A DNA stretch of 64,000 nt from an uncultured Thermoplasmatales archaeon (GCA_964346655.1 CAYFVP010000126.1:7877-71876), one strand, 5' to 3'; numbered from the stretch's first letter, positions 27,687 through 49,184 are shown. Notes: generated by a model not told the origin, from the sequence alone. Program-made: numbers and translations.

Positions 27687-30068
27687 CTATAATAATCCTT
27701 GAATAAATCTTAGTTTTAATGTTACTTTTATAAACTGTTTAACTAAATTCATTAATTTATTAACATTAAAAGCTTTATTTCTTGGTATATTTACTTTTAA
27801 AGGATCAGACCATTCACTTATTAAATCATTAGAATCTTTGGCTCTTGCTTTTATCTCATAACTTGCTTTTTCTGTCCAAATATGACTTGCTTCGCAGATC
27901 TCTCCCGATTCATATGGACCCAGCCAACCTGAGTCTGAACCATCACCCCAATCAAATAAATATTGTATCTCGTCATTATCTGGATCGTTTGTACTAGTAG
28001 AATATGTATATTGCTCTCCAATTATTCCAGAATCAGGGCCTATTGGTGTACTTGGTTTATCAGGTTTAACTCCAATGAAAATTCCTTCAAGCGTTAATGA
28101 TGGATCACCATAGAGATTGAATGTATAAAGATCATTATATTCCACCCATTCATACCAATCAAAATTAACGTTACAGTAATGCTTCGAATTATATAGTGCC
28201 TCCCCTACTTTTTGGGAATGACTGATTAAATATCTATTGAATTCATAAATAATTGAATATGAAGCGCCAGGATTCATTGGCCAATCTGATGTTCCATATG
28301 GGGCTCTTGCTGATGAAATTACACCAACAGAAGCACCATAAGATGGTTTTGTTAAAAGATCAATTCCCATATTCCCAAAGTTATTTGGTTCAGGATAACC
28401 AACATAACATGAAATACAGGTAACAACCGATGGATAGTCGTCATCTAAATTTGATGAGGTGGAAAGAAGATTTGGCCATGATATTTCATTTGCCTCAGGA
28501 ATATCATCTCCATCATCCCAAGTCCAAACCTTTCTAGCAATACGATCAGAAAAGCCATGGGCTCCCCAGTTGACAATTGAGTATTGTCCAGTTCGCCAAT
28601 CATTAGAAAATGATGATTCACTCAATGGATTCCATGGATAAATTGATTTTTCAAGGCCTACTTGTTCACTATAATGACTAACAGTCCATCCATCCATGAA
28701 ATCATTTTCAATATAAGCACAGCATGTAGCACCATCCATCGCAGGTTCTCCAATCCCTAGTTCATCAGTAAAATAGAAAAAAGCACCGGGGTGTAATGCA
28801 TGTTGTTTCCAATCGCTGATATCCTGCTCAAAGGAAACAGTTTTTTCAAGAGTATAAATTATTCGTGATGGATTATTAATTGGAATACGACCAACATAGA
28901 TTTCTGGAAAGAAATCAGGCATATCATGACCATACTCTCCATAATAACCATCACCATCTAAATCCCAGGAAATTGAATCAGAACTTGATAGATCTGCATA
29001 ATAATAATCAGTTGGAACCTCTCCGCCATCTCCACCAGGAGTTCCAGCGGTGTTTTTATGATTATATGGATCAGGATAACAATATCTCATTGGAACAGTC
29101 TCATAATCGCCCACGATAAGTACATACTCAATATTCCAATCAATATAATATTCTCTAAGAAAATTACGGACCTTTTCTGCAAGATCGTTACCAAACTGAC
29201 TTGTAATTTCAGAATCTGAAACATTAACAATTTTAATATTATATCCTATCGTATTTTTCCAGGATATAAAGTTAGTTGAGGTAATTGCATCATAAAGATT
29301 ACCTGATGTAATGATTACATAATTATATGTATCGTCTTTAGAATTAGAAATAAAATATTTAGGCTCATATAATTTTTTTATTTCATCATAATTTACAAAA
29401 AGATCTTGTGCTTTTTTATCAGCAAGACTGTCCCATTTGATCTCTTCAATATTATCTTGTGATGAAAAAGTATAATTGATAGTAATCTGAGCGGAATCAT
29501 AACGAATAAGTTTTCCTGATTTTGGATAATATTTAAAGGGATAAATTGAAACTAAAACATATAAGTATTTTCTAAAAGAACCTGAACCAAGAAGTTTTCC
29601 AGGCTTACTAGGATAAGGTTCATCAGATAAATATACTAAATTATAATTATTCAGCCACTCATCTTTAAACTTGCTGAGGCTATTTTGCTTTGAACCATCT
29701 AATGGAACAATATTAGAATTTGGAATAATATAATACCTATCTGGTAATTCTTCTGCATTTATTCCCTTAATATCTACAGAATGAACTTTGGCTCCAGGAG
29801 GTAAAGCAATCAAAACATTTTTACAAGGGAGTAATGGCTTACCAGGTTCCATTAAATAATTGTAATTATCCATTATTATTTTTTGTCCATTTTCACAACT
29901 TTTTATTTGATATTCATCATTGCTTGGAAAAAATTCGGAATAAATTATGGATTCAAAATTACCATCTATCTGTAAAGCCTTTATTAAATTATTATGTGAA
30001 GAAACAGTAGCTCCAAAGTAGGTTGTTACTAAAAGTAACACTATTACAAATGTAAAAATCTTCTTCAT
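27687..30068 (-). CDS. Secreted gingipain-like (peptidase C25 family) protein with C-terminal PKD-like module
   Basis: 793 aa; signal peptide; 'VLIVGDYETVPMRY', His 'NWGAHGFSD' and Cys 'CISCYVGYPE' motifs in C25-like order; C-term 'YLFDWGDGSDSGW'. Confidence 0.6.
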   Translation of the reverse strand: MKKIFTFVIVLLLVTTYFGATVSSHNNLIKALQIDGNFESIIYSEFFPSNDEYQIKSCENGQKIIMDNYNYLMEPGKPLLPCKNVLIALPPGAKVHSVDIKGINAEELPDRYYIIPNSNIVPLDGSKQNSLSKFKDEWLNNYNLVYLSDEPYPSKPGKLLGSGSFRKYLYVLVSIYPFKYYPKSGKLIRYDSAQITINYTFSSQDNIEEIKWDSLADKKAQDLFVNYDEIKKLYEPKYFISNSKDDTYNYVIITSGNLYDAITSTNFISWKNTIGYNIKIVNVSDSEITSQFGNDLAEKVRNFLREYYIDWNIEYVLIVGDYETVPMRYCYPDPYNHKNTAGTPGGDGGEVPTDYYYADLSSSDSISWDLDGDGYYGEYGHDMPDFFPEIYVGRIPINNPSRIIYTLEKTVSFEQDISDWKQHALHPGAFFYFTDELGIGEPAMDGATCCAYIENDFMDGWTVSHYSEQVGLEKSIYPWNPLSESSFSNDWRTGQYSIVNWGAHGFSDRIARKVWTWDDGDDIPEANEISWPNLLSTSSNLDDDYPSVVTCISCYVGYPEPNNFGNMGIDLLTKPSYGASVGVISSARAPYGTSDWPMNPGASYSIIYEFNRYLISHSQKVGEALYNSKHYCNVNFDWYEWVEYNDLYTFNLYGDPSLTLEGIFIGVKPDKPSTPIGPDSGIIGEQYTYSTSTNDPDNDEIQYLFDWGDGSDSGWLGPYESGEICEASHIWTEKASYEIKARAKDSNDLISEWSDPLKVNIPRNKAFNVNKLMNLVKQFIKVTLKLRFIQGLL

Positions 30069-30226
30069 TATTTTACCTCCAGCTTTTTTTAATTACAATA
30101 TAATATAAGATATCAATAATTAAAACTTAACATTAATAATTTATACAAAATAATTAAAAAGTAAATTGAAATTTTAATTTGTTCAAAATTATTGCATTAG
30201 ATATTACTATTAATACCTAAATAACC

Positions 30227-49100: not shown

Positions 49101-49184
49101 TTTTTTTCATCTTCTGCTTTTGGAAACAAGGCATCAGATGTTAGGGGTGCAGAATTTTCTTTAATTGGAATACAATTTTTATAA
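46152..49184 (+). CDS. Secreted PQQ-like 8-bladed beta-propeller protein with four tandem PKD domains and ~250 aa unknown C-terminal domain
   Basis: 1010 aa; 8x 'YCLxAxTGxxIWxY' repeats; four ~90 aa 'TFDASxSYDxDGxIxLYEWDWDNDGTYDES' PKD units. Confidence 0.75.
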   Translation: MLFSACVIPGINSNININYIQESKLEIINNLGIKINQIPNNIGDINSWPMFHHDLENTGYSNSIAPDADVLKWSFSLGNSVSSPVVTNDKVYVGESMGKMYCLDAESGNEIWSYISDSGIYFSAPAIYDGKVYIQTADEFICLDANTGDFIWSYSPCGGWSSPAVIEGKVYFGSDNNNVYCLNAYTGDKIWNYQTGGKVKSSPAVVNGKVFIGSDDNYVYCLNANSGSKIWSFLTGNLVESSPAVVNGKVYIGSADAYMYCIDAETGDEIWSYAPCCVKISSPAIAYGKVYAGTTCEASVYCLNAETGEKLWRFQTGGHVWSAPAVADGKVYVGSLDSKIYCLFAETGIEIWNYQTGGNVITSPAIADEKLYISSNNGKIYCFTSENQPPVPLFDWEPEYPEPGEIVTFDASDSFDTDGTIVLYEWDWDNDGAYDESHTTSTATHVWYEVSLYPVTLRVTDDDGATDTKTKIVFVGIMPPVADFTWTPEIPEPDETVTFDASDSYDADGTIVLYEWDWDNDGTYDESYIIPTAEHSWPEEGSYTVKLRVTDDDDLTDTCKKVIHIGVIPPIADFSWSPQVPQSGKVVTFDASGSYDLDGFIELYEWDWDNDGTYDESSTVHITQHTWFETGNYPVTLKVTDNSNAYDTVTNIIHVINRAPIGDFKWTPAYPLPGEIVIFDASGSYDPDGVIVLYEWDWDNDGTFDESSTTPVATRSWEEKGSYYITLRVTDNNEKIDRVTRTVKVSGEIITEANWGDSNFSGDPAGSFLTYKLQKWHGYESSNNKAWSQVDLNVWFPKFRKNVFNKMDNTDPFPKIRSINLPIIQKFTNFFLKIISKPIQRSNQNVHTLKFEENVKLNKAGRQGLSWASVGITYTPSNTGDTQITLKGKLKGKFTTDIITGSKVDNWVTASLHVVEKDSYIPEENEGESCELFYYNFTSNKKTIDVALNKGFIVSLSEGKEYLIYLKLKTYASLSPKRPILDGFFSSSAFGNKASDVRGAEFSLIGIQFL
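47328..48411 (+). repeat. Four tandem ~270 bp intragenic repeats encoding PKD domains (near-identical DNA stretches)
   Basis: e.g. 'gtaacctttgatgcatcagacag' + 'ggcacaattgttttatatgaatgggattgggataa' recur at ~47381/47641 with ~270 nt period, degenerate copies at ~47911 and ~48181. Confidence 0.8.

Follow-up and report, generated by a model that had tools for sequence, protein, structure and literature searches.

Gene content and export signals

The DNA analysed here (the window) comprises 64,000 nucleotides from an uncultured Thermoplasmatales archaeon (GCA_964346655.1 CAYFVP010000126.1:7877-71876), and its central part, positions 27687-49184, encodes peptidases, other hydrolases and propeller proteins, four of which end in the same PKD-like module followed by a short C-terminal tail. 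Fourteen open reading frames (ORFs) were counted in this region of about 21 kb. An ORF map together with Pfam and NCBIfam scans reproduced every domain assignment of an initial annotation, which had described the region as a surface-protein island.

Export was called with a simple in-house heuristic that looks for a Lys/Arg-bearing n-region (K/R) ahead of a 12-amino acid (aa) hydrophobic core. By this rule signal-peptide-like N-termini are present in 10 of the 14 ORFs of the region versus two of the window's other 37 (Fisher p=4e-6), in agreement with the secretion first proposed for the island proteins. The initial annotation counted seven large secreted proteins; those it named hold up, but the number is too low, as more than seven are predicted to be exported. 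Further signal or transmembrane N-termini are found on two proteins called hyp398 and hyp257, on an ORF of 68-74 aa and on a membrane-bound winged helix-turn-helix (wHTH) protein, and the PQQ protein would be an eleventh candidate, provided that a lipobox signal lying upstream in frame is real.

The host appears to belong to the Thermoplasmatota and to be related to MBG-D (Marine Benthic Group D)/Thermoprofundales. Alignment of C25 peptidase orthologues in a scan of species representatives puts Thermoplasmatales archaeon bin45 closest (71%, full length), followed by CSMAG_1140 (70%) and further Thermoplasmatota genomes assembled from metagenomes, among them Thermoplasmata archaeon M9B1D and Thermoplasmatales archaeon SM1-50; M9B1D and SM1-50, both among the best C25 matches, are MBG-D/Thermoprofundales genomes. 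Metagenomic contigs (Logan ERR2564004; GCA_012975005.1) encode identical proteins. A search for relatives in species genomes based on Elp3 found none, and no rRNA, tRNA or other Rfam features were found in the window.

Peptidases and associated surface proteins

The C25 (gingipain-family) cysteine peptidase (27687-30068, minus strand, 793 aa) is composed of a signal peptide, a Propeptide_C25 domain (aa 60-232), a catalytic domain (aa 250-660), the PKD-like module and the tail. It matches Pfam Peptidase_C25 along the entire profile (1-374 of 374; 127.5 bits, cutoff 23, E=1e-36) and Propeptide_C25 with 37.8 bits (cutoff 22), and weak profile matches link its pro-domain to 4ief and 5mun, the pro-domains of RgpB and Kgp. 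The pairs His504-Gly505 and Ser553-Cys554 are invariant across 15 orthologues and fit the pattern of clan CD, and a catalytic dyad is predicted from the Pfam match and this invariance. There is also a weak NCBIfam match to the PorU-related sortase (E=8e-5, 21 bits versus a cutoff of 450). Among 921 homologues found, proteins of Zixibacteria, Ignavibacteria, Gemmatimonadota, Eisenbacteria, Fermentibacteria and other bacteria are 45-56% identical over propeptide and catalytic core, and after residue ~650-665 the bacterial homologues carry Dockerin_1, Por_Secre_tail, Big_7, FlgD_ig or Golvesin_C. Such unusual conservation across domains would imply that the gene passed between bacteria and archaea of sediments, its terminal module being replaced.

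The second cysteine peptidase, of the C10 (streptopain/interpain) family and preceded by an I69 propeptide, lies on the plus strand (ORF 34884-36209, with the frame open to 36506). It matches Pfam Peptidase_C10 (116.4 bits, E=2e-33) and, in its propeptide, Inhibitor_I69 (27.3 bits, cutoff 25), and its motifs 'AGCPAVAMAQ' and 'AGHNMVVDGY' line up with the catalytic Cys and His of interpain A as well as of streptopain. The gene is not intact. A TGA stands in frame at 36207-36209 at the codon of a conserved Trp, which the reference orthologue from M9B1D (541 aa) retains at this position, and TGG to TGA is a single transition. The 98 open codons after the stop are 55-60% identical to the M9B1D orthologue and encode what remains of the beta-sandwich and an end that resembles the tail. 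Four contig records carry this truncated product. Recoding of TGA was considered and rejected, since TGA terminates 13 other genes of the window, several at overlapping ATGA junctions; the stop looks like a recent nonsense mutation or a truncated allele.

The M14 zinc carboxypeptidase (40854-43652, minus strand, 932 aa; Pfam 158.5 bits) has a signal peptide, the M14 domain, CarboxypepD_reg, about 190 unassigned aa, a NosD-type beta-helix, the PKD-like module and the tail. Its motifs 'HHGNE', 'DLNRD', 'SYHT', 'DFSYG' and 'WTIE' align with carboxypeptidase T/D, and by this comparison the Zn ligands (HxxE and a distal third His) and the catalytic Arg, Tyr and Glu are all kept. A secreted GATase1-like (BPL_N) protein (31600-32799, minus strand, 399 aa from ATG; Pfam BPL_N E=3e-26) shows a GICAG nucleophile elbow and an HPE motif, followed again by module and tail; direct reading of its sequence suggests a catalytic triad. 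The PHB-depolymerase/feruloyl-esterase (LpqC-like) protein (36513-37490, plus strand) is a lipoprotein esterase that matches NCBIfam e_dPHAscl_type1 (E=1e-41) and the feruloyl esterase PDB 9j07 (E=3e-25), to which its GxSxG, Asp and His can be aligned; the lipobox LLLSGC, in keeping with the pattern [LVI][ASTVI][GAS]C, closes its signal, and the C-terminal module is absent. Conservation of catalytic residues is thus supported by the alignments of M14 and esterase, by the Cys/His of C10 and by the invariant pairs of C25, the last of these outside any alignment to a solved structure. The initial annotation had named missing signal peptides and lost catalytic residues as grounds for giving it up, and neither was found.

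Two propeller proteins complete this set. The FG-GAP/VCBS beta-propeller surface protein (43751-45943, minus strand; Pfam FG-GAP_3 E=8e-29, and PKD_4) carries one canonical PKD domain ahead of the PKD-like module and tail. The other (46152-49184, plus strand) combines, by Pfam, a PQQ/BamB-like propeller with four canonical PKD domains and a C-terminal region of 260 aa that has no domain assignment. Its called TTG start (46152) leaves just 'MLFSAC' of the signal, such that the lipobox 'LLFSAC' is present and the signal truncated. The upstream in-frame codons (46050-46180, plus strand) read KITRKITFIKCSIFTISLLLFSAC, a complete lipoprotein-type signal without ATG, GTG or TTG. The anomaly could be due to a mutation, to an assembly error or to the use of ATA/ATT as a non-canonical start. 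Within the same protein, the segment DPFPKIRSINLPIIQKFTNFFLKIISKP (48590-48690, plus strand; aa ~815-845) resembles junction and tail, 4 of 500 shuffles reaching its score in the tail test described below. It is followed by about 165 residues of unassigned sequence and may be the relic of an older C-terminus or of a fusion.

A shared PKD-like module

The module, about 95 aa long, is present in exactly four proteins (C25, GATase1-like, M14 and FG-GAP), with no other copy in the 64 kb; the scan of the window did not find it in the C10, esterase or PQQ proteins. All four copies are on the minus strand and are followed by a basic junction and a tail, a combination referred to here as the cassette. 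It occupies 27690-28064 in C25 ('IPRNK' and a 31-aa amphipathic tail), 31603-31977 in the GATase1-like protein ('VPRYK' and a 29-aa hydrophobic tail), 40857-41231 in M14 ('IPRTK' and a 31-aa amphipathic tail) and 43754-44128 in the FG-GAP protein ('IPRVK' and a 31-aa amphipathic tail). The first three match the PKD domain structure PDB 4XED (E=4.5e-19, 1e-26 and 1.4e-22, respectively) and the FG-GAP copy was matched by a hidden Markov model (HMM) of the module. Pairwise identity among the island copies is 34-56%.

Fold prediction agrees with these matches. The AlphaFold2 model of the M14 module is a beta-sandwich with a predicted local distance difference test (pLDDT) score of 96-98, and its top Foldseek match is 4XED (template modelling score 0.94, root-mean-square deviation 0.8 A, 45% identity). 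The module thus belongs with the 4XED subtype of PKD, whose match includes the WGDG motif, by sequence as well as by fold. Generic Pfam PKD models stay below threshold on the C25 copy (19.6 versus 27), and the next-best PDB sequence matches are PKD domains of the ColG/ColH collagenases. A profile search of 1.84 billion cluster representatives (50% identity) returned at least 31,973 clusters with E<=1e-3, of which 4,675 reached E<=1e-30, and many of these proteins have tandem arrays of up to 50 copies.

Comparison of the four island copies with 842 others bears on their origin. The C25 module is nearest to the modules of C25 orthologues (<=82% identity) and its island paralogues rank 147th or lower; it was thus inherited with its gene. 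The GATase1-like module is likewise nearer to foreign copies than to island copies. The adjacent M14 and FG-GAP modules are 56% identical at the aa level and 62% at the DNA level, and each ranks first or second for the other. The initial annotation had one paralogous module of about 90 aa ending several proteins, which is borne out for four of them, and took this to indicate domain shuffling within the island, which is supported at most for the adjacent M14/FG-GAP pair and not for C25 and the GATase1-like protein. Judged by these sequence relationships, the cassette appears to be a reusable module of the whole lineage and not a product of the island.

The junction and the C-terminal tail

Past the beta-sandwich, all four proteins have I/V-P-R-x-K, after which 29-31 residues remain before the stop codon. 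The family consensus of 83 non-redundant tails is I-S-M-P-K-N-K-A-I-N-x-P-L-L-L-N-L-L-E-R-F-P-N-L-F-P-I-L-R-K-L-L-G-L, with junction conservation of 75% for M, 93% for P and 77% for K/R. In tandem arrays the internal copies are followed by Pro-rich linkers, and junction and tail come solely after the last copy; about a quarter of the 150 best module-family matches carry the tail. It also follows beta-sandwiches that are not PKD-like, as in the C10 orthologue of M9B1D (locus L022) and in proteins of two other sampled loci (L077 and L082). The domains of tail-bearing proteins include C25, S8, M28, PepX_C, Laminin_G_3, FG-GAP, FG-GAP_2, BNR and arylsulfotransferase. A signal-like N-terminus is present on 72 of 92 tail-positive proteins, the other 20 being partial or without one by the heuristic. 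The tail HMM gives 24 ORF-end matches in 413 kb of archaeal loci versus none in 874 kb of bacterial loci.

Neither Pfam nor NCBIfam has a model that matches the motif, even in canonical tails, and its identity with a known sorting signal was rejected on this ground; literature searches on 4XED, the motif string and anchoring in Thermoplasmatota found nothing relevant on tail or cassette. In the AlphaFold2 model of the M14 module the tail is a single helix (aa 98-121, pLDDT 60-83). Tails have an Eisenberg hydrophobicity of 0.1-0.45, a hydrophobic moment of 0.3-0.6 and a net charge of +2 to +6, and the signal peptides and transmembrane segments of the same proteins reach a hydrophobicity of 0.8-1.1. 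The predicted profile is that of a cationic amphipathic helix and not of a membrane span. A transmembrane anchor was rejected, as the hydrophobicity is too low, with the possible exception of the GATase1-like tail (0.66).

How well do the tails of the window itself fit the motif? They were scored with an HMM built without window sequences, against 500 composition-preserving shuffles per tail. None of the shuffles reaches the score of the C25 tail (15.2 bits) or of the M14 tail, six reach that of the FG-GAP tail (p about 0.01), 24 that of the GATase1-like tail, a weak resemblance, and 33 that of the C10 extension. The nearest C25 orthologues (66-73% identical) have weak tails as well and distant orthologues have canonical ones, a comparison inflated by the contribution of these orthologues to the model. 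In the island the cassette is absent from the esterase and the PQQ protein, which have a lipobox or its remnant, and no cassette protein has a lipobox, a complementarity that is suggestive only.

The secreted protein hyp398 (30227-31423, minus strand, 398 aa) was another candidate bearer of the tail. It has a signal peptide, a helical and hydrophobic middle and a beta-rich C-terminal part, and no Pfam or NCBIfam family matched it. Its end, '...IRTPRAK...FLERFYNFLQRFYILIPNFLK...', is tail-like. The 43 homologues are very uniform in length (about 397-400 aa) and share a conserved C-terminus of their own, '...ER(F/I)xNFLxR...FPNFF(K/R)...RIDIL(L/S)I'. With 15 of 500 shuffles reaching its score, and no significance of the tail HMM across its family, hyp398 is not established as a clear tail-bearer.

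Retention, sorting or release

We consider it likely that the region is a chromosomal neighbourhood for much of the extracellular proteolytic and surface apparatus of a low-GC sediment archaeon, whose proteins are retained at the cell. Judging from their N-terminal signal peptides, the proteins would leave the cell through Sec. C25 and C10, both of which have N-terminal propeptide domains, would be made as zymogens and, once active, would cut detrital proteins, the products being trimmed by the M14 carboxypeptidase; the GATase1-like hydrolase and the esterase may act on other amide and ester bonds, and the FG-GAP and PQQ/PKD propellers may bind substrate or surface. Retention could take two routes. 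One would be a lipid anchor at an N-terminal lipobox (the esterase and probably the PQQ protein). The other would be the cassette, in which a PKD-type beta-sandwich spacer and a basic P-[KR]-x-[KR] junction would present the cationic amphipathic helix of about 30 aa to the membrane, the envelope surface or a receptor. Peptides and amino acids so released would feed the pathways of the adjacent AFOR, oxoprolinase/hydantoinase, acyl-CoA dehydrogenase and methylmalonyl-CoA mutase genes.

Several observations weigh against this picture or parts of it. The export calls come from our own rule and not from SignalP. The catalytic domain of C25 has no PDB match by sequence or profile, so there is no superposition on gingipain, and the full-length AlphaFold2 model of C25, built from 15 sequences, is unusable over residues 400-666 (pLDDT <50). 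The tails of the window are degenerate, with clear significance in C25 and M14 and p values of 0.03-0.07 for the GATase1-like protein, hyp398 and the C10 extension. In a wider sample, exclusivity of lipobox and tail is not significant (1/72 versus 9/154). Residue-specific conservation (E-R-F-P..F-P-I-L-R) favours a recognition signal over a passive lipid-binding helix. Lastly, the region is not syntenic in relatives, where just fragments of the neighbourhood are kept, and the 'island' is a matter of co-location and not a conserved unit.

Could the tail then be an address and not an anchor? The slot at the C-terminus of C25 would be one for anchoring or sorting, because bacterial homologues carry Dockerin_1, Por_Secre_tail and the like there, and junction and tail are accordingly placed as a candidate surface-retention or sorting signal. 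A C25 core that, to judge from these homologues, swaps just its terminal module between lineages would constitute a 'choice-of-anchor' pattern, which in NCBIfam curation practice has pointed to sorting signals before. We tentatively suggest that M-P-[KR]-[NS]-[KR] with '..PLFLxFLERFPxxFPILRxLLGL' is an undescribed sorting or surface-attachment signal of Thermoplasmatota with a dedicated partner, either a receptor or a processing enzyme; the partner may be a gingipain-like C25 paralogue that cuts at the basic junction. If so, the tail would do for many exported archaeal proteins what dockerins, C-terminal domains (CTDs) of the type IX secretion system (T9SS) and sortase signals do in bacteria. 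A stricter form of the idea has the signal recognised and cleaved at P-[KR]-[NS]-[KR], the protein then being released or attached covalently to a lipid or envelope polymer by an archaeal analogue of PorU or archaeosortase or by an Arg/Lys-type C25 paralogue, which would make the cassette akin to a T9SS CTD or to PGF-CTERM. We rate this as somewhat unlikely and keep it as a serious rival because canonical tails are conserved at specific residues, even among proteins less than 50% identical. The strictly terminal position of the motif, after the last tandem module alone, speaks for it too, as do the occurrence of the tail on sandwiches that are not PKD-like, the exchange of the module for Por_Secre_tail or dockerin in bacterial C25 proteins and the weak match of C25 to the PorU-related sortase, although that match is far under its cutoff. 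On the other side, no sortase-like, rhomboid or archaeosortase gene was found in the 64-kb window, the tail lacks the transmembrane helix and terminal Arg cluster of exo/archaeosortase signals, sorting-signal models of NCBIfam and Pfam leave it unmatched, and its decay in the lineage of the window would be surprising if the signal were obligatory and its partner still present.

It is less probable still that the enzymes are free exoenzymes, in which the module would serve substrate binding or solubility, as in the clostridial collagenases, and the tail, with no part in anchoring or sorting, could be a short-lived pro-segment or folding aid. The kinship of the module to the ColG/ColH PKD domains and the poor conservation of tails in the window would fit, and extracellular peptidase activity is reported to be measurable in bulk sediment (PMC6752024). 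However, module and tail are also found on non-enzymes (FG-GAP) and on many unrelated catalytic domains, bacterial homologues fill the slot with anchoring or sorting modules, and the canonical tail is conserved too well for a spacer. Least probable of all, and in our view rejected, is the reading that the hydrolases arrived as one block on a mobile genomic island acquired by horizontal transfer, comparable to a pathogenicity or fitness island. An integrase gene (80-1384) does lie in the window, the identity of the C25 core to bacterial proteins suggests old inter-domain transfer, C25 genes occur on predicted plasmids in 27 Thermoprofundales genomes (PMC9585477), and the gene content of the neighbourhood varies among relatives. 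Yet 26 kb that include core metabolic genes separate this integrase from the region, no tRNA gene was found in the window (flanking repeats were not searched for), the GC content of the region (24-35%) is like that of the downstream flank (26-31%), housekeeping Elp3, GNAT and PNPOx genes are interspersed, and the orthologues in relatives are scattered, with no sign of block movement or block synteny.

Other genes of the region and its flanks

Elp3 (radical SAM and GNAT; 32960-34558, minus strand) matches Pfam ELP3_N, Radical_SAM and Radical_SAM_C and lacks a signal peptide; it is a cytoplasmic housekeeping gene amid the island genes and stands outside the secreted set. The ORF map and Pfam/NCBIfam scans also give a GNAT (37579-38070, minus strand) and a PNPOx-like protein (40373-40810, plus strand). 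Between these two lies a three-gene unit (38277-40141, minus strand; Pfam and ORF map). The initial annotation called it a regulator trio; the unit of three genes is there, but only one of its ORFs has a helix-turn-helix. This is the membrane-tethered wHTH regulator (39383-40141, minus strand), with a signal or transmembrane N-terminus, an outside domain of ~110 aa, a transmembrane segment and a DUF7343/MarR wHTH. The other two encode a secreted coiled-coil protein (hyp257; 38504-39277, minus strand) and a small acidic protein with a transmembrane segment (hyp74, 68-74 aa; 38277-38483, minus strand).

Parts of this arrangement recur. In Thermoplasmatales bin45, orthologues of hyp257 and hyp74 directly precede the C25 orthologue, and 8 kb off lies a second C25 paralogue. 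M9B1D has the wHTH regulator followed, in this order, by C10, two C25 genes, a module protein and an orthologue of the membrane protein encoded at 49201-49890; clusters of C25 paralogues are all that other relatives retain. Because the adjacency to C10 and C25 genes recurs, the membrane-tethered wHTH unit may regulate them. The protein at 49201-49890 (minus strand) is a multi-pass membrane protein of 229 aa that no Pfam family covers. An orthologue 63% identical to it lies at the border of the M9B1D peptidase cluster as well (L022 9112-9798), and the protein is the sole conserved 'edge' seen for the variable region.

The flanks encode, besides the AFOR, oxoprolinase/hydantoinase, acyl-CoA dehydrogenase and methylmalonyl-CoA mutase mentioned above, an HdrA/MvhD-type complex and an archaeal Beta_propel protein. 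Directly downstream, at 50509-62280, is a sugar-nucleotide/envelope-glycan cluster with genes for an epimerase, a GHMP kinase, SIS and HAD proteins (heptose-like), a DegT aminotransferase, a GFO/IDH/MocA oxidoreductase, a hexapeptide acyltransferase, a GT2 glycosyltransferase and two nucleotidyltransferases. In it a bacterial-type NAD-dependent glycerol-3-phosphate dehydrogenase (60001-61038) adjoins a TagF-like CDP-glycerol glycerophosphotransferase (61027-62280, minus strand). As judged from its annotation, the pair would be teichoic-acid-like polymer chemistry in an archaeon, with use of sn-glycerol-3-phosphate beyond membrane lipids. At the other end of the window the tyrosine integrase is followed, up to 3585, by three small ORFs without confident families, one of which has a weak wHTH match. 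GC content is low (26-28%) over 80-3585, and this segment may be what is left of an integrated element that has no connection with the peptidase region.

Significance

Together with related Thermoplasmatota, MBG-D/Thermoprofundales rank among the most abundant archaea of marine sediments, and a role in remineralising buried protein is ascribed to them. Extracellular peptidases of the C25 gingipain, C10 interpain and M14 types, both abundant and transcribed, have been described in them alongside PKD-containing proteins (Zhou et al. 2019, PMC6461988), and a protein-degrading lifestyle with extracellular peptidases has been reported for Thermoprofundales (PMC9585477); both papers cite Lloyd et al. 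2013 for MBG-D peptidases. The proteolytic or peptide-scavenging lifestyle first proposed for the host agrees with this literature and is largely right, yet it was already established for this archaeal group. The window adds a contiguous and well-resolved example of the secreted toolkit, set between amino-acid fermentation genes and an envelope-glycan cluster, and supports the published picture without changing it. The new lead is the junction and tail motif, which is widespread, archaeal in the sampled loci and unannotated in the libraries tested, and whose function is proposed here from sequence. If the tail retains exoenzymes, it is relevant to the way in which slow-growing cells in sediment regain what extracellular digestion yields, and it would offer a sequence tag for predicting surface proteomes and a phylogenetic-profiling handle on the machinery that recognises it.

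Comparison with known systems

The published peptidase repertoire of MBG-D/Thermoprofundales is the closest counterpart, the genomes being relatives and the C25, C10, M14 and PKD families being the same. That literature catalogues families by MEROPS and Pfam, and cassette, tail motif and gene neighbourhood were not found described in the papers searched; the C25 of the window organism is just ~70% identical to that of the nearest deposited genome. PDB 4XED is the PKD domain of an M14-like peptidase from Thermoplasmatales archaeon SCGC AB-540-F20, the same type of parent enzyme as the island M14. Its construct stops at '...LEVTMPK', right at the junction, and the tail is thus excluded from the structure.

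The T9SS of Bacteroidota/FCB offers a parallel in its CTD (Por_Secre_tail) and PorU, as there too a C-terminal Ig-like beta-sandwich of ~80-100 aa is found on many unrelated secreted hydrolases, and a bacterial homologue of the C25 core (P0051) carries Por_Secre_tail in the slot of the archaeal module. PorU itself is a C25-family enzyme. The island proteins have no match to PF18962 or TIGR04183, the models for T9SS cargo, Archaea have neither outer membrane nor T9SS, and the archaeal cassette adds a helical tail after the sandwich. The dockerin-bearing C25 proteins of Zixibacteria and related bacteria, 45-56% identical over propeptide and catalytic domain, likewise end in one small C-terminal targeting module. 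Dockerin, however, is a Ca-binding ligand of cohesin, whereas the archaeal C25 has the PKD-like module and tail instead, and a cohesin is not evident in the window. Archaeosortase and exosortase signals (PGF-, PEF-, VPXXXP-, PIP- and PEP-CTERM) gave no NCBIfam match on window proteins or on proteins with canonical tails.

For a helix that holds an exported enzyme at the membrane, the precedent is PBP5 and PBP6 of E. coli, whose C-terminal amphipathic helices are membrane anchors. By analogy, the archaeal tail could be a similar device, in which a hydrolase exported by Sec ends in a short cationic amphipathic helix whose hydrophobicity is below that of transmembrane segments. The two are not homologous, and what sets the archaeal tail apart is its conserved two-proline motif and the basic junction that precedes it.

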